A stretch of 64,000 bases of DNA from an uncultured Spirochaetota bacterium (GCA_963734545.1 CAVTHO010000007.1:96001-160000); one strand, 5' to 3'. Counted from the first letter of the stretch, positions 6,011-15,200 are shown. Numbers and translations: made by a program. Notes: a model not told the origin generated them from the sequence alone.

Positions 6011-6880
6011 ATGTTGAAGAGCGGGAGTCCCGGCGAGCGATTCCGCCGCGCGCTGGATGAAGAAAGGCCGCTGCAGATTGTGGGCGCTCCCAATGCCCTG
6101 GTGGCGCTCATGGCCGAACGGACCGGCTACCGCGCAATCTACCTCTCCGGCGCGGGGGTGGCAAACCTTTCCTACGGGCTGCCGGACCTCGCGGTCACCA
6201 CGTTGGACAACGTGCTGGAGGATGCCCGGCGTCTCACCGGCGCCGTGAGCCTGCCGCTGCTCGTGGATGTGGACACCGGTTTCGGCGCGGAGCTCATGAT
6301 CGGCCGGACCGTGCGGGAGATGATCCGGGCCGGGGTTGCCGCGATTCACATGGAAGACCAGGTGGCCGACAAGCGCTGCGGCCACCGCCCCGGCAAGGCG
6401 CTCGTGAGTCTGCAGGAGATGGTGGACAGGATCGAGGCTGCCGTCGATGCCCGAAGCGACCCGCGCTTTGTCGTCATGGCGCGCACGGACGCGGTCGCGG
6501 TGGAGGGGACGGAGCAGGCCCTCGAGCGCGCGGTGGCGTATGCCCGGGCAGGGGCCGACATGATTTTCCCGGAAGCGCTCGGTGACCTGGAACAGTACCG
6601 CGCATTCAAGGCGGCGACCGGCCGGCCCGTGCTGGCCAACCTTACCGAGTTCGGTCTCACACCCGCGTTCACCACCGTCGAGCTCGCTTCCGCCGGTGTG
6701 GACATGGCATTGTACCCTCTGTCGGCGAGCCGGGCCATGAACCGGGCCGCGCTTCGGGTGCTGACCGCGATACGGGACCAGGGATCTCAGGCAGAGGTGG
6801 TGCCGGAGATGCAGACCCGCAAAGAGTTGTATGAGCTCCTCGGCTACGAAGAGCTCGAACGGAAGCAAAAACATGGCTGA
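6011..6880 (+). CDS. prpB: 2-methylisocitrate lyase
   Basis: YLSGAG, GLPDL, DVDTGFG, HMEDQ and KRCGH catalytic loop; precedes prpC/prpD. Confidence 0.92.
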
Positions 6881-8028
6881 GGACAGCAAGAATCCGGCGA
6901 CCGAATACGATCGCAAATTCGCGGACGTGAAGAAGGTGGGCGGGCTGGCCGGCATCGTGGCCGCGGACTCGGCCATCTGCACCGTGGGCATCGAGGGCCG
7001 GGGCCTGAGCTACCGGGGCTACTCCATCGAAGACCTTGCCGCTTACGGCAGCTTCGAAGAGGTGGCGTGGCTTCTCCTGCGGGGGGAGCTGCCCACCGTG
7101 GGCGAGCTTGCGGACTACCGCCGCACGCTGCGGACAATGCGCCGGCTCCCCCCGGACCTGGCGCGGCTCCTGGAGCAGATTCCGCCCGGGGACAGCATGA
7201 TGGGCATCCTGCGCACCGCGGTCTCCTTGTTGGGAAACGTGGAGCCGGAGCGCAGGAACGGAGATTCCCTGGCGCTCGCCGACCGGCTGCTGGCCATCCT
7301 GCCGTCCATCGTGCTCGCGCGCGAAGGCAAAGAGCTGCCGGACGGCGAGGAGAGCCTGGCCGGCTATTTCCTGCGCGGCCTGCACGGCCGCTCCGCCCCG
7401 GATGACCTGCGCCGGTGCCTCGATGTCTCTTTGATACTCTACGCGGAGCACGAGTTCAACGCGTCGACCTTCGCCGCGCGCATCATCACCAGCACCCTGT
7501 CCGACGTGCATTCCGCCGTGGCCGGCGCCATCGGCGCCCTGGCCGGACCTCTGCACGGCGGCGCGAACGAAGAGGCAATGAAGCTGATCGAGGCCTACGC
7601 CGATCCCGATGACGCGGAGCGTGGAATCCAGGAACGGCTGGAACGCAAGGAAAAGATCATGGGTTTCGGGCACCGCATCTACACGGTCTCGGATCCCCGC
7701 TCCATCGTCATCAAGAAATGGGCGCTCAGGCTGGCGAGGAGCGAGCGAGCAGAAGAGGCTCTACGCCGTTGCCGAACGGATCGAAAAGGTGATGTGGGAA
7801 GAGAAGAAGCTGTTCCCCAACCTGGACTTCTACAGCGCGCTGGCCTACCGGTTCTGCGGTATCCCGACCGAGCTGTATACGCCGATGTTCGTGCTCGCGC
7901 GCATAAGCGGCTGGATGGCCCACATCATCGAGCAGAGGTCGAACAACAAGCTCATCCGGCCGATCAGCAGGTACACGGGCCCGGATCCCCGGGTGTACGT
8001 CCCACTGGTTGCGGAAGAAAAAGGATGA
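6873..8028 (+). CDS. prpC: 2-methylcitrate synthase; frameshift near 7745
   Basis: [28 protein letters not shown], then FPNLDFY...IRP in the next frame (7609..8028). Confidence 0.9.
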
Positions 8029-9468
8029 GCAGCCCCGACGGGCTGCGGGGAGGCGGGGCCGCAGACATGCTGCTGGCCGATATCGCCGCCTACGTCGTCG
8101 ATTTTCCCATCCTGAGCGAGCCTGCTCTTGACGCCGCCTCCTGGAGCCTGGCGGACAGCCTCGGCTGCGCCATGCTGGCCCTCCAGTTCCCCGAATGCCG
8201 GCGGAGGCTGGGCCCGCTGGTGGAAGGCGCAGACACTGTCACCCGGCTGCCGCGTGCCGGGCACCCGCTTCGAGCTGGACCCTGTGCAGGCCGCGTTCAA
8301 CATCGGCACCATGATCCGATGGCTGGACTACAACGACACCTGGCTTGCGGCGGAGTGGGGTCACCCGTCCGACAACCTCGGCGGCCTGCTTGCCGTCGCG
8401 GACTGGTGGAGCCGAAGGTCCGGGGCAGGGGAGCCGGTCACTCTGCGGCGGCTCCTCGAGGCGCAGATCAAGGCGTACGAGATCCAGGGCATACTGGCCC
8501 TCGAAAACGCCTTCAACCGTGTGGGCCTGGATCACGTCATCCTGGTCAAGGTGGCGACCGCGGCCACGGCGGCGTGGCTGATGGGCGGCGACCGTCAGCG
8601 GATTGTAGATGTCCTTTCCAATGCGTGGATCGACGTCGGTCCGCTGCGCACGTACCGGCACGCGCCGAACACCGGGGCGCGCAAGTCCTGGGCCGCCGGT
8701 GATGCTACCGCCCGCGGGGTGCGCCTTGCCCTCATGGGCATGGCAGGCGAGCCGGGCTACGCCACCGCGCTCTCCGCGCCCCGCTGGGGATTCCAGGAGG
8801 CGGTCTTCGGAGGCCAGCCCCTGCGCGTCGGCAGACCGTTCGGCTCGTACGTGGCGGAGAATATCCTTTTCAAGATCTCGTTCCCTGCCGAGTTCCACGC
8901 CCAGACGGCGGTGGAGGCCGGCCTGGCCCTGCACGGACGGGTGAAGGACAGGCTGGAGCGGATCCGCCGGATACGCATTCGCACGCAGGAGTCGGCAATG
9001 CGGATCATCGACAAGCAGGGTCCCCTGCACAATCCCGCCGACCGCGACCACTGCCTCCAATACGCGGTTGCGGTCGCGCTCATCCACGGTGAGCTGCGCG
9101 CCGAGCACTACGAGGAGGAAGCGTCGCGCGATCCACGAATCGACCGGCTGCGCGCGCGTACGTCAGTGGAGGAGGACCGCCGGTACAGCGCCGACTACCT
9201 GGATCCCGAGAAGCGCTCGATTGCCAACTCTCTCCAGGTCTTTTTCGATGATGGAACCGCGACGGAAGAGGTCGCAGTGGAGTACCCCATCGGCCATCGC
9301 CGGAGACGGGCCGAAGGTCTGCCTCTCCTGTTTTCCAAGCTGCGGGAAAACCTTTCCGGCCAGCTTCCGCCGGATCGAGTCGACGCAATCCTCCGCGTGT
9401 GCGAGGACAGGAAGCGGCTCGAGGAACTGGCTGTGCCCGAGCTGATCGAGCTTTTCCTTCGTGCATGA
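8025..9468 (+). CDS. prpD: 2-methylcitrate dehydratase; +1 frameshift near 8241
   Basis: DSLGCA in the first frame, then [30 protein letters not shown] and [10 protein letters not shown]. Confidence 0.92.
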
Positions 9469-10543: not shown

Positions 10544-11893
10544 ATGAGAAAAATCTTCACGTGCGGAATCGCGGTTCTCGTTCTTCTCCTGGCCGCGGGT
10601 TGCCCTAGTCCGGACGGGACGCCCGGTCCCGGGCCGTCAGAGCACAAAGCCTCCATAAAAGGCACGGTGTTCGATACCGTGACCGGCGAGCCTGTTGCCG
10701 GGGTGACCGTGGGATTTGCCGGCGCACGCGCCGGCACCGATGCCGCGGGAAGATTCGCACTGGACCTGGGCACAGGCACGGGCACGGTCAACGGATCATG
10801 GAGCATGCACAAGGAAGGCTACCAGTTCAGCTATCTCCAGGAAGTGTCCGTTGACGCAAGCCGTGACTGGGAAATAAGTGTCCCGACCCGGCGATGCAAC
10901 CGCTCCGCCTACAGTGATCGCGCATCCGTGTTCGGAAAGGTCTATTCCTCTCCCGGCGTCGAGATCGCCCTGGGCTCGAAGGTCACCGCGTACCTGTTCA
11001 GCGCAAGCGGCGCCTTCAACGCGTACTCAAACCTGCCGTATGACGGTCAATACGCGTTCTCCACCCCGATTTCCTGCGCGGACTGCCTTCTCGTGGCGCT
11101 CGTGGAGCCGGTGGGAGGCGTGGCTTTCGTTGCCATGGTCCAGGGAGTCGACCTGACAGGGCTCGCGCCGGTGAGGCAGGATGTGACAGCTCCCGAGTCG
11201 GGGTACACGGACGTCCTGATCACTCCCTCCCGCGCGGGCAACCTGGCCAGCTGCTCTTTTGTCACGAAGTACGGCCTGGTCCCGGCTTTTTTTTCCGCTC
11301 CTGTGCCGACCATGAGCTGGCGGTTCACCACGGCTGCTCCTGTTTCTGTCGGCATGTTCAATCCTTTTGCCTGGAACAAGGCAGTGTGGACTCAAATTGA
11401 AGAAGATCCCGGCTTTGGCGGCCTGCCCTCCCACGTCAAGGAATTCATCAGCATCTCCGCGCCGGGTGACTTCTCAAGTTCCGTTGTCCTCCCTGCGCCC
11501 GATCATGGTCTGGGTCCGACAGGGTGTGGGGAACCGGAAAGCCTTGCCTACGCAGACGGAGTTCTTTCTCTCAACGCCGTTGCCGGTGCCCGGTTCTACG
11601 CATACACCATGCGGGCGAGCTCGGCGGCAGGGGACATACTGGGCACGGTTGTCACCCGGAACTCCGCCGCGGTGCTGCCGGGCTGGCTCCTGAAGATCAT
11701 GAGTGACCGGACCGTGCACATGTGTTTCGACGTCCTGGACTGCGCCGCAGTACCGCAGGATCCGCTGCACGCCGGCGCCCAGTCATCGACTCCGATTGCC
11801 GTGGGACGGGTGCGGGGGAACGGCACCAGCCTCTCCTACGAGAAGCTGCTCTGCATCCCCGCCGCCGGATCGGCGGTCATTGGACTGGAATGA
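10544..11893 (+). CDS. Lipoprotein with a carboxypeptidase-regulatory-like (transthyretin-fold) domain; C-terminus GSAVIGLE
   Basis: Lipobox LAAG-C; IKGTVFDTVTGEPVAGVTV...TDAAGRF motif; beta-rich. Confidence 0.75.
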   Translation: MRKIFTCGIAVLVLLLAAGCPSPDGTPGPGPSEHKASIKGTVFDTVTGEPVAGVTVGFAGARAGTDAAGRFALDLGTGTGTVNGSWSMHKEGYQFSYLQEVSVDASRDWEISVPTRRCNRSAYSDRASVFGKVYSSPGVEIALGSKVTAYLFSASGAFNAYSNLPYDGQYAFSTPISCADCLLVALVEPVGGVAFVAMVQGVDLTGLAPVRQDVTAPESGYTDVLITPSRAGNLASCSFVTKYGLVPAFFSAPVPTMSWRFTTAAPVSVGMFNPFAWNKAVWTQIEEDPGFGGLPSHVKEFISISAPGDFSSSVVLPAPDHGLGPTGCGEPESLAYADGVLSLNAVAGARFYAYTMRASSAAGDILGTVVTRNSAAVLPGWLLKIMSDRTVHMCFDVLDCAAVPQDPLHAGAQSSTPIAVGRVRGNGTSLSYEKLLCIPAAGSAVIGLE

Positions 11894-11971
11894 TCCAGGG
11901 CAGAGGCCACTTTTCTGGAGATTCGTTGTCGGGCTTCGGCCCGAATTGAAACCTGTTCGAGGAGGTCGTGT

Positions 11972-13280
11972 ATGAAAGTGAAGTTGCTCATTCTCGGGCT
12001 CCTGCTCACGATTGTGCTTCTCGGCTGCCCGACGCCACAGATGGGCACGGGTCCCGGGACGCTGGGCGGAAAGGAGCGGACCGGCACGGTGACGCTGGCC
12101 CTGCCCAGGATCTCATCGTACCTGGCCCAGGCATTTGGCGTCTCACCCTCCCTCGTCTCGGCAGCTCCAAAGGCGCTCTTGATCATCAATCGCGTGGAGC
12201 TGAGTCTCTGGCTGAGCGGGGAAGAGATAGAAACCCTGGAGGTCAGCCCGAACACCGGGCCGAACATGATTCAGCCGATCGAATGGAGCGTCCCTTCCGC
12301 GGCCGGGTACACGGTGACGGCGAAGATCTTCAACACCAGCGTGGACGCCGCCACTCCCCTGCTCTATGGGACTTCCGATCCCTTTGACGTGTCCGCAGGT
12401 GGGACCACGAATGTGACGATCCGCCCCGTGCCCCATCCCCCCATCACGCTGGCGCCCATCACGGTACCTGCCGGTGGAGTTGCCAGCACGACACTGGCGT
12501 CCTGCTACGTCACGGGGCCGGTGGAGGCACCGGAGTATGGATGGCGCGACGAGCGCTGGTTTGCCATCGATACCTCCCTCTATTCCGCCATCCGCGTGAG
12601 CGCCGATCCGGACGCATCGAGCGCGGTGTACATGACGGTTGCGGACCAGACGGGCAAGATCCGGGCCCATGCGCTGAGCGGCGCCATGGGCAATATGGGC
12701 CCTGCCTACTGGAACTATGGCGGGGCGGCCACACTCGGCGTTCTCACGGGCGGGAGTACGTGCTACGTGGGGCTGGTCACTCTGTCGAGCACTGGCTCTT
12801 CGGTGAACAGCAGCGTCGACGTCAGCTTCTCTCCCGATGACGGATGACCCTTACGAGGAGAACGACACGATCGGAACGGCCGTGAATGTGCCCAAGACCA
12901 CGGTGATCAATGGGATCGATCTGGACAGCCCAACGTACACCTGGCCGGGAGGGGGGGGAGACTGGTACAAGTTCACGCTCACCGGAGCGGATGACCCCAA
13001 CGTCACGATTGTGCTCGAGTTCGACATGGACGTGAGCGACTTCGTACTGGGACTGTATTGGTATGTCGGCGCGGATGTGAACAGGTTGGAAGAATCCGAT
13101 ACTTCAGTCCTGTCCGGCCCCACGAACCCGGCAGCCAAGGAAAAGGAACAGATCGCCAGAACACTTGATCCGGGAGTCTATTACCTGTGGGTGCAGGCGC
13201 GCAACCAGTGGGCCAGCGGCAACAGTTATCGGCTCCAGTGGGTGGCGGGCAACGGGACCATCACGATCGGACTGGAATAG
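11972..13280 (+). CDS. Lipoprotein with PPC-like domain(s); +1 frameshift near 12842; C-terminus GTITIGLE
   Basis: GGAGG RBS; lipobox LLG-C; ORFs 11972..12847 and 12837..13280 join at CCC GAT GAC (G) GAT GAC CCT; DDPYEEND...DWYKF...PGVYYLWV PPC-like pattern. Confidence 0.75.
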
Positions 13281-13351: not shown

Positions 13352-15106
13352 TCATGTCGCGGCGGTCACGATCCTGTTCTTTCCGCCGCGCTTGGCCTCG
13401 TACAGCAGGGAGTCTGCCGCGCCGATGAGCTCTTCCGGCTGTGAGCCGTTCTCCGGGCCGACCGCGACGCCCATGCTGACTGTCACCTGGACGCAGGGAA
13501 ACGACGAGCCTTGAAGGAACTCACGGGCGGCAATGGCCGCGCGGATGCGCTCCGCCACCACCACCGCGCCTTCCCGACCGGTGTAAGGCAGCACGACGAC
13601 GAACTCCTCCCCCCCGTATCGGGCGGGGAGGTCGATCTCACGGATGCAGCTCCTGATCCTCCCTGCCAGCTCGCCCAGGATGTGGTCTCCTGCCAGGTGT
13701 CCGAGCGAATCGTTCATGGACTTGAAATCATCGATATCCATGAGCACGAGCGAGGTGGGGTGGCTCTGACGGAGTGAGCGTTTCAACTCGAGGATGAGGA
13801 ACCGCTTGAAGTAGCCCTGGTTGAAAAGCCCGGTGAGAGCGTCGTTGGCGGAAGCGCTGAGCGCCGAGCGGTAGCGCGCGCGAAGCGATTCCAGCTCGCC
13901 CTTCTGCTTCAGGAGCCGGCCGACCCGGGCCAGGATCTCCCTCGCGTCCACGGGGGGCATCATGATGTCATCCGCTCCGCTGGACAGGAAGCGGACCCTG
14001 CTTTCGGGATCGTTTTCCGGGTCCAGGACCACGAGCGGAGTGAACCGCGTCTCCTCCCGCTGCTTCAGCTGCCGGGAGATTTCGAGGGCCTCCGCGCCGC
14101 GGCCCTCCGCGTCGAGTATGATCAGTGAAGCCCCCGCCAGGCTCTCGTCGCGGGCCACGTCTTCCACGCGCCCGGCGGCCCGCACATCAAAACCTCTTGC
14201 GGCGAGCAGGGCGCGGAGGCCTTCCAGCCCGCCGTTCGCCGAAGAAAGCAGGATGCGCGGCGCTTGCCCCGAAGCGGCGAAACCCGTCTCCCCTTCCGGG
14301 ACAGTCCTGTCACCGGACATCGATCTGGACCGGAGTTGTTCCCTGTATTGCTTCAGCCGGAGGATCGAGGAAATGCGGACAAGAAGCTCCGCCTGATCCA
14401 CGGGCTTGGAAAGAAACTCGTCGGCTCCCGCCTCCAGACCGACTGCCTTGTCGTGCGCATCGAAGAGAGCAGTCACCAGGACTATCGGGATCTGCAGGGT
14501 ACGGGCGTCGCCTTTCAGTCGGCGCGTCACCTCGTAGCCGTCCAGATCCGGCATCCGCACGTCGAGCAGAACCAGGTCCGGGTATTCCTCGACGGCCTTT
14601 CTGATGGCCTCTTCGCCGCTGAACGCCTTGATGACCTCGTAGCCTTTGCTGCGCAGGCCCAGGGCGAGCGAATCGACGATCATCGGCTCGTCGTCCACCA
14701 CGAGCACGCGCGCGGTCCCCGCGGGCGCGTACGCGGTCGGCGTGTCGACCAGGCGGCCCACCGTCTCAAGGAAGGAGCTGCTGGCGATCGGCCGGGTGAT
14801 GTAGGCGTCGCACCCGGCCCGGATGGCCTCCTGCCGCAGGTCCTTCGTATCCGGGGTCACCGCGATCACCGGCAGCGCGCGCAGGCCGGGGTCTTCCTTG
14901 ATGACCTGGATCGTTCGCAGGCCGCCCATTTCGGGAAGACGCACGTCCACGATCACGCAATCAGGCGCGTACTCGCGCGCGGCACGAACGCCGTCCTCCG
15001 CGTCTGCCGCTTCCACGGTCAGATAGCCTCCCAGCGTGAGCAGTGTGCGCAGGAGCTTTGTGTTCAGCGGCTCATGTTCGATGACGAGCACCGTCCTGTT
15101 GGCCAT
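13352..15106 (-). CDS. PleD-like response-regulator diguanylate cyclase (REC-REC-degenerate REC-GGDEF)
   Basis: VDVRLP and LDVRMP phospho-Asp sites, third degenerate REC, REID I-site, RYGGEEF. Confidence 0.9.
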   Translation of the reverse strand: MANRTVLVIEHEPLNTKLLRTLLTLGGYLTVEAADAEDGVRAAREYAPDCVIVDVRLPEMGGLRTIQVIKEDPGLRALPVIAVTPDTKDLRQEAIRAGCDAYITRPIASSSFLETVGRLVDTPTAYAPAGTARVLVVDDEPMIVDSLALGLRSKGYEVIKAFSGEEAIRKAVEEYPDLVLLDVRMPDLDGYEVTRRLKGDARTLQIPIVLVTALFDAHDKAVGLEAGADEFLSKPVDQAELLVRISSILRLKQYREQLRSRSMSGDRTVPEGETGFAASGQAPRILLSSANGGLEGLRALLAARGFDVRAAGRVEDVARDESLAGASLIILDAEGRGAEALEISRQLKQREETRFTPLVVLDPENDPESRVRFLSSGADDIMMPPVDAREILARVGRLLKQKGELESLRARYRSALSASANDALTGLFNQGYFKRFLILELKRSLRQSHPTSLVLMDIDDFKSMNDSLGHLAGDHILGELAGRIRSCIREIDLPARYGGEEFVVVLPYTGREGAVVVAERIRAAIAAREFLQGSSFPCVQVTVSMGVAVGPENGSQPEELIGAADSLLYEAKRGGKNRIVTAAT

Positions 15107-15200
15107 GGCCACCACTATAGCGCATGCCGGCCCGCAACGGAAGCGCACCGCGGCGTGGAGTACCGCTCTGGCCGCCTGGTGCGGACTCCGTCCGCTGCGG

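Follow-up and report, generated by a model that had tools for sequence, protein, structure and literature searches.

A conserved pair of spirochaete lipoproteins with candidate donor-strand tails and a predicted acceptor domain

Introduction

Why should two neighbouring lipoproteins that are otherwise dissimilar end in almost the same strand? This question is raised by positions 10,544 to 13,280 of a stretch of 64,000 nucleotides from an uncultured Spirochaetota bacterium (GCA_963734545.1, CAVTHO010000007.1:96001-160000), the whole of which is here called the window. The host is a wetland spirochaete, and the proteins of the two genes, here termed gene 1 and gene 2, are dissimilar save for their tails GSAVIGLE and GTITIGLE. 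We propose that the two genes form a self-contained two-gene spirochaete lipoprotein module. Its working principle may be donor-strand complementation, in the manner of type V pili, between the two tails and an acceptor domain of gene 2, with gene 1 as a lipid-held, donor-only protein; the case for this explanation is judged to be evenly balanced. In silico, support was shown by a free tail, by the topology of strands beta1, beta4 and beta7, by a complex model with the tail in the slot of beta1 and by a family-wide link between domain and tail.

The comparison is with type V pili. According to the available portion of PMC13655056, each type V pilin is a lipoprotein containing two transthyretin-like domains, and sheet 1 of the N-terminal domain (NTD) of Mfa1 joins beta4 and beta7 to beta1, the anchor strand tethered to the lipid, until the donor strand replaces it. 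Gingipain cuts in the beta1-beta2 loop, between R46 and A47 in FimA and between R49 and A50 in Mfa1, and the C-terminal donor strand of a neighbour then takes the place of beta1. Anchor subunits have a donor strand and no cleavage site, and tip subunits have no donor strand. The same portion of the source states that type V pili occur only in the class Bacteroidia. A preliminary description of the window, made from the sequence alone, had suggested a type V-like assembly for genes 1 and 2, with a shared C-terminal export or sorting signal as the alternative.

The adjacent genes and their conserved tails

The pair is encoded on one strand, and gene 2 is interrupted by a frame change that is described further below.

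10544..11893, plus strand: gene 1, lipoprotein of 449 amino acids (aa), ATG at 10544 and stop at 11891-11893; proposed donor-only, lipid-held base or anchor
11972..12847, plus strand: gene 2, first piece, 291 aa with lipoprotein signal, candidate acceptor N-domain and middle jelly-roll, ending at the frameshift-induced stop 12845-12847
12837..13280, plus strand: gene 2, second piece, 147 aa with PPC/collagen-binding-like domain and tail

The translation of gene 1 starts with MRKIFTCGIAVLVLLLAAGC and ends in PAAGSAVIGLE; gene 2 begins 78 bases past gene 1 with MKVKLLILGLLLTIVLLGC, and its second piece ends in NGTITIGLE. Two adjacent, dissimilar lipoproteins with a common terminal strand, as had been described, were thus recovered in the translations, and no similarity apart from the tail was found when gene 1 was compared with gene 2 by BLASTP (best E 3.1).

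A gene 1 relative lay directly upstream of a gene 2 relative, with both proteins tailed, in 4/4 loci having a full-length gene 2 relative plus upstream DNA (the window, L007, L010 and L011). The relatives P0007 (gene 1) and P0002 (gene 2) each stem from a single 3374-base contig, probably the same one. In every relative of the pair that was found both tails were retained, as follows.

Window: gene 1 tail GSAVIGLE, gene 2 tail GTITIGLE
P0007 / P0002: gene 1 tail GSAVIGLE, gene 2 tail GTIVIGLQ
L007: gene 1 tail GTVTIGLE, gene 2 tail GTISIGLE
L010: gene 1 tail GGIAIGIE, gene 2 tail GTIIIGIE
L011: gene 1 tail GAVVVGLE, gene 2 tail GTITIGLE

The tail codons of L007 and L010 carry synonymous differences, and constraint therefore acts on the peptide. 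The flanking genes differ from locus to locus and are not conserved around the pair. In the window, gene 2 meets at its end a convergent gene on the minus strand (13352-15148), whose 598-aa product holds a GGDEF domain and three receiver-domain stretches, and no link of this product to the gene pair was seen in the other pair loci.

Ends of the form [IVL]G[LIV]E were found in 8 of the 32,507 stop-to-stop open reading frames (ORFs) of at least 80 aa in this genome, and the only lipoproteins with a G-x-phi-x-IGLE end among these eight were gene 1 and gene 2. In a regular-expression scan of the 159 candidate lipoprotein ORFs of this genome, gene 1 alone carried the tail, that of gene 2 being located on the piece behind the frameshift. 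A genome-wide sorting signal was rejected on this confinement to the two neighbours, and the alternative of a shared export or sorting signal, as offered in the preliminary description, appears unlikely. Additionally, a second adjacent lipoprotein pair (G000:C7:803013-806229; ~353 and ~576 aa) was considered as a candidate and discarded: the end of its first protein, GTFSIMVSE, forms the final strand in a PPC-like domain, and neither protein was matched by the hidden Markov model (HMM) of the N-domain of gene 2.

Predicted architecture of gene 2

The intact relative P0003, which is 70% identical to the first piece of gene 2 in the window, was modelled with AlphaFold from a 25-row alignment (predicted local distance difference test, pLDDT, 86.9; predicted template modelling score, pTM, 0.82), and the model was compared with 48,161 solved chains by VIA-align. 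The following features were assigned to gene 2 from the translation, the alignment of 33 relatives and this model.

11972..12028, plus strand: signal peptide and lipobox VLLGC with Cys19, from the translation; the Cys is invariant in 33/33 aligned relatives
12080..12106, plus strand: beta1 strand TGTVTLALP, residues 37-45, proposed anchor strand; strand state at 38-45 in the P0003 model, with the pattern G-T-phi-x-phi-x-phi as in the tails
12104..12139, plus strand: conserved motif P-x-I-S-x-x-L-x-x-A-L, short helix after beta1, from the alignment consensus; helix at 50-55 in the P0003 model
12170..12175, plus strand: K67-A68, proposed cleavage site in the beta1-beta2 loop; R or K in 26/33 relatives and Q in 7/33, next residue A in 29/33
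12080..12445, plus strand: candidate acceptor N-domain, transthyretin-like sandwich related to DUF4493 (first half of the Pfam model); VIA-align over model residues 36-164
12449..12835, plus strand: middle beta-jelly-roll domain; VIA-align over model residues 167-290
12836..12847, plus strand: frameshift through an additional base near 12836 (cccGatgacggatga), by which the stop at 12845-12847 is created
13251..13277, plus strand: C-terminal tail NGTITIGLE, proposed donor strand, beyond the last PPC strand SYRLQWV; no strand state and low pLDDT in both models

Residues 292-427 of the P0003 model were superposed on the collagen-binding domain (CBD) of ColH (3jqw) with a Z of 14.2 and a root mean square deviation of 1.9 Å over 110 aligned residues, as well as on the CBD of ColG (1nqd, Z 14.1) and on the PPC domain of a Bacillus collagenase (Z 11.7), and the last domain of gene 2 was assigned to the PPC fold. 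Pfam PPC (PF04151) matches 6/33 family members and gives no match to the window copy at E<=1. For residues 167-290 the neighbours were the C-terminal domain of Tk-SP (Z 11.3-11.4) and GOLD domains (Z 9.2-9.7), indicating a jelly-roll; the PPC-like domains that had been described in the plural thus come down to one, the last, the middle domain being of another fold.

Residues 36-164 form a transthyretin-like sandwich, as had been expected of the N-domain, with ExsB (2yjl, Z 8.3), BT_0210 (4ecn, 8.1) and DUF4876 (4q1z, 7.8) as neighbours. The pilins among the neighbours were Mfa3 (5nf4, tip; Z 7.4), BACOVA_04078 (3up6; 7.3) and Mfa2 (5nfi, anchor; 7.1), values which lie in the range that VIA-align calls common; the transthyretin-like fold class of the modelled N-domain is supported, and homology to pilins is not. 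A Foldseek search against the PDB gave collagen-binding domains, HA70, SIDT and Cry proteins, with no pilin among the matches listed. Only chance-level matches were obtained when the PDB sequences were searched with the N-domain profile (best E 0.037), nothing at 0.9 or above was found in the ESM Atlas, and the Pfam and NCBIfam scans of gene 2 gave nothing usable.

The C-terminal tail (residues 427-436) had no strand state in the full-length P0003 model; pLDDT was 50 in the last block and <50 at residues 434-436. After removal of residues 1-68 the model reached a pLDDT of 90.5 and a pTM of 0.86, and beta2, beta3, beta5 and beta6 were kept. In this second model beta4 (102-109) and beta7 (146-148) were no longer strands, and since both lose their strand state upon deletion of beta1, the latter is taken to be the strand that bridges them. 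Docking of the tail into its own domain in cis was considered and rejected: the tail was still no strand in the beta1-deleted model, and therefore no cis filling is predicted. The claim that the C-terminal strand is not packed in its own domain is consequently consistent with both AlphaFold models.

Modelled complex of the gene 1 tail and the gene 2 slot

For the complex, residues 68-291 of gene 2 of the window (residues 1-67 removed) were modelled together with residues 21-449 of gene 1. The interaction prediction score from aligned errors (ipSAE) was 0.83 (0.84, 0.82 and 0.83 in the individual runs), compared with 0.00 for the best of three unrelated-partner controls. The same mark was reached by 116/157 solved complexes and by 2/215 mismatched pairs, counts that apply here only roughly, own alignments having been used. 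The runs shared at least 99% of their contacts, and the pLDDT of the partner was at least 86.

The predicted interface comprises the tail of gene 1 (439-449) plus residues 338-340 and 377-388 on one side, and residues 68-87, 100-113, 115-119, 135-152 and 228-230 of gene 2 on the other. The residue pairs of lowest error were those between the gene 1 tail (442-448) and residues 103-105 (antiparallel) and 144-151 (parallel) of gene 2; from these strand directions the tail is placed, in the model, in the position of beta1 between beta4 and beta7. The idea that the tail of gene 1 would be found in the groove vacated by truncation of gene 2 up to APK was thus upheld by the prediction. The model supports, and does not show, binding of the gene 1 tail in the beta1 slot, and it would fit the proposed roles, in which the anchor gene 1 only donates and gene 2 both accepts and donates.

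The N-domain family and its link to the tail

A profile search against 1.84 billion representative proteins gave 475 matches at E<=0.001, many of which cover the PPC-like domain only, in giant repeat proteins. The N-domain HMM recognised 42 of the 156 proteins that were collected, and the tail pattern stands at the C-terminus of 22 of these 42. In the background of this genome it was present at 77 of 24,757 ORF ends, or at 15 of 24,757 if the leading G was required (0.06-0.3%). One of the 22 tailed proteins, P0014, is an apparent chance match, and three of the 20 tail-less proteins are fragments or the broken piece from the window. The query profile contained the tailed C-terminal domain, and therefore close relatives of gene 2 are over-represented; among the N-domain proteins that are not orthologues of gene 2, 11/29 are tailed, with several differing C-terminal architectures that include a 760-aa protein containing CBM_4_9 and a group of ~500-aa proteins without a PPC domain. 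In the members that lack a tail, LRR, BNR, solute-binding or PPC domains are present. The lipobox Cys is kept in all of the aligned N-domain relatives, and in this genome gene 2 is the sole match of the HMM.

Across the family, beta1 follows the pattern G-T-phi-x-phi-x-phi-P and the tail the pattern G-T-phi-x-phi-x-phi-[EQD]. In order to quantify this likeness, a matrix was made solely from the beta1 segments of the 33 relatives and scored on ORF C-termini. Background ORF ends had a mean of -14.1 (standard deviation 5.7; 99th percentile 0.7), and most tails scored between 2 and 16. Among the 24,757 ORF C-termini of the genome the gene 2 tail ranked 1st and the gene 1 tail 108th, in agreement with the described resemblance of TGTVTLALP (residues 37-45) to the tail of the same protein.

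The N-domain family is rare, as judged from the genomes searched. Of 92 genomes at the level of the order, strong matches were found in G000, G019 and G027 only, with five weak ones. None of 300 other genomes across the phylum matched the N-domain positions of the profile, and four of them matched at profile positions 174-365 only.

Several loci with N-domain relatives are arranged in other ways. In L003 (G019, same genus) a 455-aa repeat-built lipoprotein ending in GSLTITVD (29-1396) is directly followed by a 285-aa N-domain relative with an R-A site and without a tail (1435-2292), possibly a pair of a donor-only and an acceptor-only protein. L002 (G027, same order) contains tandem paralogous N-domain lipoproteins (70-1272 and 1381-2574) with the site SRA and another, non-PPC C-terminal part, which end in GTGTIIITIQ and ETGSTGISVQ. 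In one family of the same order, loci L026, L027 and L029 share a set of three genes, for a barrel-like protein with a terminal F, for a ~225-aa protein ending in GGIVIHLK, GSIIVQIPLN or GGILIHLSEAE, and for a lipoprotein that matches the N-domain weakly (E 1e-6 to 3e-4). In L030 (G023) a secreted 253-aa protein ending in TGTFSVTVN (464-1225) stands upstream of a lipoprotein (1132-2721) with a weak N-domain match (E 3.3e-4). Moreover, L009 holds a gene 2 relative (3-1085) on a 1157-base metagenome contig, with an in-frame stop between ...YILVADE and GIVRAQALSG....

Sequence and conservation of gene 1

The following features were assigned to gene 1.

10544..10603, plus strand: signal peptide and lipobox LLAAGC with Cys20, from the translation; Cys20 is invariant in 6/6 aligned relatives
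10652..10792, plus strand: N-terminal CarboxypepD_reg-like domain, weak match; Pfam PF13620 25.7 bits, PF13715 25.3 bits
11858..11890, plus strand: C-terminal tail PAAGSAVIGLE, residues 439-449, proposed donor strand, from conservation and the complex model, in which it faces gene 2 residues 100-113 and 140-152

The PF13620 and PF13715 scores lie under the Pfam cut-offs of 32.3 and 32.2, so that gene 1 is not assigned to the CarboxypepD_reg-like families; both are listed in the database for the relatives P0006 and P0007. Apart from such sub-cut-off matches in Pfam, the NCBIfam scan of gene 1 gave one stray match far under its cut-off. Relatives of gene 1 were P0006 (92% identity), P0007 (79%), L007 6533-7951, L010 20-1375 and L011 2046-3419. 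In the alignment of the family, P439, G442, G447 and E449 are invariant in 6/6 members at overall identities down to 28%. A counterpart of the R/K-A segment is absent from gene 1 in these six rows, as the preliminary description had noted.

The broken reading frame of gene 2

Intact relatives of gene 2 (436-459 aa) read continuously across the position of the break (SFSPFADDPYE), and a metagenome contig that is ~94% alike and spans 12803-12988 has one base fewer at 12836. Removal of base 12836 from the window opens the frame into that of the second piece, at a length equal to that of the relatives. Among the sequencing runs listed for the stretch none was of RNA, and each contained a share of 0.13 or less. 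Other genes of this genome are broken likewise. Upstream of the pair, the citrate synthase and PrpD genes (window 6831-9468) are also interrupted by frame changes: the Citrate_synt match covers model positions 1-283 of 357 only, and the first 55 positions of MmgE_PrpD_N lie in the frame of the citrate-synthase ORF, with the remainder in ORF 8128-9468. FlaA, the protein of the spirochaete flagellar sheath, was found in this genome and in 0/14 control genomes, which agrees with the probable spirochaete host named at the outset; both FlaA loci (G000:C7:717611-718355 and G000:C7:923544-924129; L032-L036) are split into adjacent pieces in differing frames. The break in gene 2 is probably an assembly error, because the citrate synthase, PrpD and both FlaA loci are broken in the same manner, the relatives are intact and the contig lacks base 12836.

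Comparison with known systems

The module matches type V pili in logic and NTD topology, yet it is not a member of the FimA/Mfa family. Measured against what the available portion of PMC13655056 reports for FimA/FimB and Mfa1/Mfa2 of Porphyromonas gingivalis, the likenesses are several. The proteins are predicted lipoprotein precursors, with the lipobox Cys in 33/33 relatives of gene 2 and 6/6 of gene 1; the models give gene 2 a transthyretin-like NTD with a lipid-tethered beta1 beside beta4 and beta7; the beta1-beta2 loop holds an Ala after a basic residue, here K67-A68, as had been pointed out at the end of the linker; and a C-terminal donor replaces beta1, here as modelled for gene 1 into gene 2 only. 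Gene 1 would correspond to a donor-only anchor without a cleavage segment, and acceptor-only relatives could act as tips.

The differences are equally clear. No FimA, Mfa or Mfa-like Pfam match was obtained here (window proteins at E<=1; 33 relatives at E<=0.1). Gene 2 has one transthyretin-like domain in place of two, its other domains being jelly-roll and PPC-like. A single strand of ~8 residues makes up the donor tail, the Cys is followed by a longer prosegment (48 residues, including a conserved helix), the site is Q in 7/33 relatives, and the host is a spirochaete. Of the earlier suggestion of a type V-like assembly, the transthyretin-like N-domain, the free tail and the tail-in-slot model were sustained; a match to a pilin family and a second transthyretin-like domain were not found. 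The basic residue of the K/R-A site is kept as R or K in 26/33 relatives and replaced by Q in the others.

The uncharacterised family DUF4493 (PF14900) aligns with the N-domain at its positions 1-109 of 226 in 9/33 relatives, of which P0121 (41.7 bits), P0058 (31.0) and P0021 (27.7) exceed the 27-bit cut-off. In contrast, the window copy is not matched at E<=0.1, the genome as a whole gave no match, and the alignment is limited to the first half of the model. Among the 14 control genomes a signal, below the cut-off, was obtained in Bacteroides thetaiotaomicron only, and the literature search gave no paper naming DUF4493 or PF14900.

The last domain of gene 2 superposes on the PPC/CBD domains of the collagenases ColG and ColH (Z values as above); unlike these, gene 2 has an additional C-terminal tail beyond the domain and no protease domain attached. 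Chaperone-usher pili resemble the proposed module in that an incomplete sandwich is completed by the strand of a neighbour. Assembly of chaperone-usher pili requires a chaperone and an usher, whereas the pair in the window is not flanked by chaperone or usher genes, the candidate donor is C-terminal and the subunits are lipoproteins. In chaperone-usher pili the donor is an N-terminal extension that is inserted antiparallel, as given in the available portion of PMC13655056. The literature search found no paper placing donor-strand lipoprotein assembly in spirochaetes among the matches listed, of which only a telomere-resolvase paper and a general review mention Spirochaetes.

Proposed mechanism and alternative explanations

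In the proposed mechanism the acceptor would be the seven-strand sandwich of gene 2, in which beta1 (TGTVTLAL), held by a tether to the lipid anchor, is flanked by beta4 and beta7. The role of donor would fall to the free C-terminal strands G-[ST]-phi-x-phi-G-[LI]-[EQ] of both proteins, which copy beta1. Beta1 would be released first, and a cut in the beta1-beta2 loop, at the conserved [RKQ]-A, is the most likely route; we infer this cleavage by analogy with the type V pilins. The tail of gene 1 would take the place of beta1 in gene 2, with a parallel course along beta7 and an antiparallel one along beta4, and the tail of gene 2 would fill the next gene 2 molecule, giving a short head-to-tail chain with the lipid-held, donor-only gene 1 as its base. 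Polymerisation of gene 2 is proposed because one acceptor and two donors were counted in the genome. The exposed PPC-like and jelly-roll domains would serve as the working (binding) surface. Proteolysis, polymer formation, surface exposure and function of the pair belong to the inferred part of this mechanism.

Several observations weigh against this mechanism. Beta1 was taken out by hand before the complex was modelled, and an artificially opened groove may simply take up whichever available free strand is most like beta1. The likeness to pilin NTDs (Z 7.1-7.4) stays under 8, and sandwiches that are not pilins reach 7.8-8.3. In the monomer models the tail is free, whereas that of FimA is self-complemented in its second transthyretin-like domain, according to the available portion of PMC13655056. 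Five of the seven relatives with Q at the cleavage site are still tailed, as is the L007 pair. The helix motif IPxISxxLxxAL belongs to the best-conserved parts of the family and lies in the segment that would be discarded, a conservation that seems odd for a throw-away propeptide. In addition, no protease gene was found linked to the pair in the window and the related loci, the alignment of gene 1 consists of six rows only, and the assembly breaks gene 2 between its acceptor part and its donor part.

That the tail binds the gene 2 N-domain without forming a fibre, in a 1:1 or capped heterocomplex and possibly without proteolysis (e.g. during folding of gene 2), with the gene 2 tail redundant or regulatory, is unlikely. 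It would suit the fact that modelling covered the contact of gene 1 with gene 2 only, the occurrence of Q at the proposed cut site, the 18/29 distant N-domain proteins that are tail-less, and L003, where a donor-only protein and a tail-less acceptor can yield a heterocomplex only. It leaves aside, however, that the gene 2 tail equals or exceeds that of gene 1 in conservation and in likeness to beta1 and that the sole acceptor in the genome is gene 2 itself, in whose model the tail was not docked in cis; moreover, the own beta1 of an uncleaved protein should out-compete a foreign strand. It is slightly less likely still that the tail is a shared C-terminal signal for sorting, retention or docking to a third component, such as an outer-membrane export or anchoring factor, with the N-domain as a mere spacer common in surface lipoproteins and the complex as an artefact of the beta1 deletion. 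The tails form the very end of each protein, stay free in the models of the monomer and keep a final E, Q or D, as is often the case in recognition peptides, donor-only proteins exist (gene 1 and the upstream lipoprotein of L003), and the complex was modelled with beta1 removed only. A general signal should nevertheless be common among the candidate lipoprotein ORFs, and the tail is instead bound to one domain family (22/42 against <=0.3% in the background), and mimics the beta1 of that very domain; the controls with unrelated partners scored 0.00.

An ordinary structural element, either the last edge strand of the proteins' own folds or a remnant, with the likeness of the two tails due to shared ancestry or chance, is very improbable. 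PPC-type domains do commonly end in a Y-x-L-x-V strand, and the discarded GTFSIMVSE lipoprotein ends within such a domain; here, on the contrary, the tail lies past the last PPC strand, is no strand in either model, follows unrelated C-terminal domains, and is kept among relatives of 28-43% identity despite synonymous drift; gene 1 and gene 2 have no further similarity.

Donor-strand complementation between the tails and the N-domain of gene 2 may also be seen more broadly, as a second, independent lineage of protease-triggered strand-exchange lipoprotein pili outside Bacteroidia. Gene 2 would then be cut at [RK]-A and polymerised into a PPC-displaying surface fibre that gene 1 terminates and holds, and the wider family would be a plug-and-socket kit with acceptor-only members carrying LRR, CBM, BNR or solute-binding domains and with some donor-only members. 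This broader reading is tentative and, on the whole, rather unlikely. The arrangement of a donor-only protein and a tail-less acceptor in L003 suggests a general plug-and-socket kit, of which fibres would be one possible outcome.

Significance

If donor-strand complementation holds for this pair, the assembly principle of type V pili, in which a lipid-tethered first strand is swapped for the C-terminal strand of a neighbour, would be present in Spirochaetota on a different domain scaffold, and the question would arise whether the principle evolved repeatedly or is very old. For an unannotated family of metagenomic lipoproteins it would provide a rule by which the tail marks the donor and the N-domain the acceptor, and the two-gene module would make a simple test system. 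The organisation of surface lipoproteins in spirochaetes is poorly understood, and the pair described here is relevant to that question.

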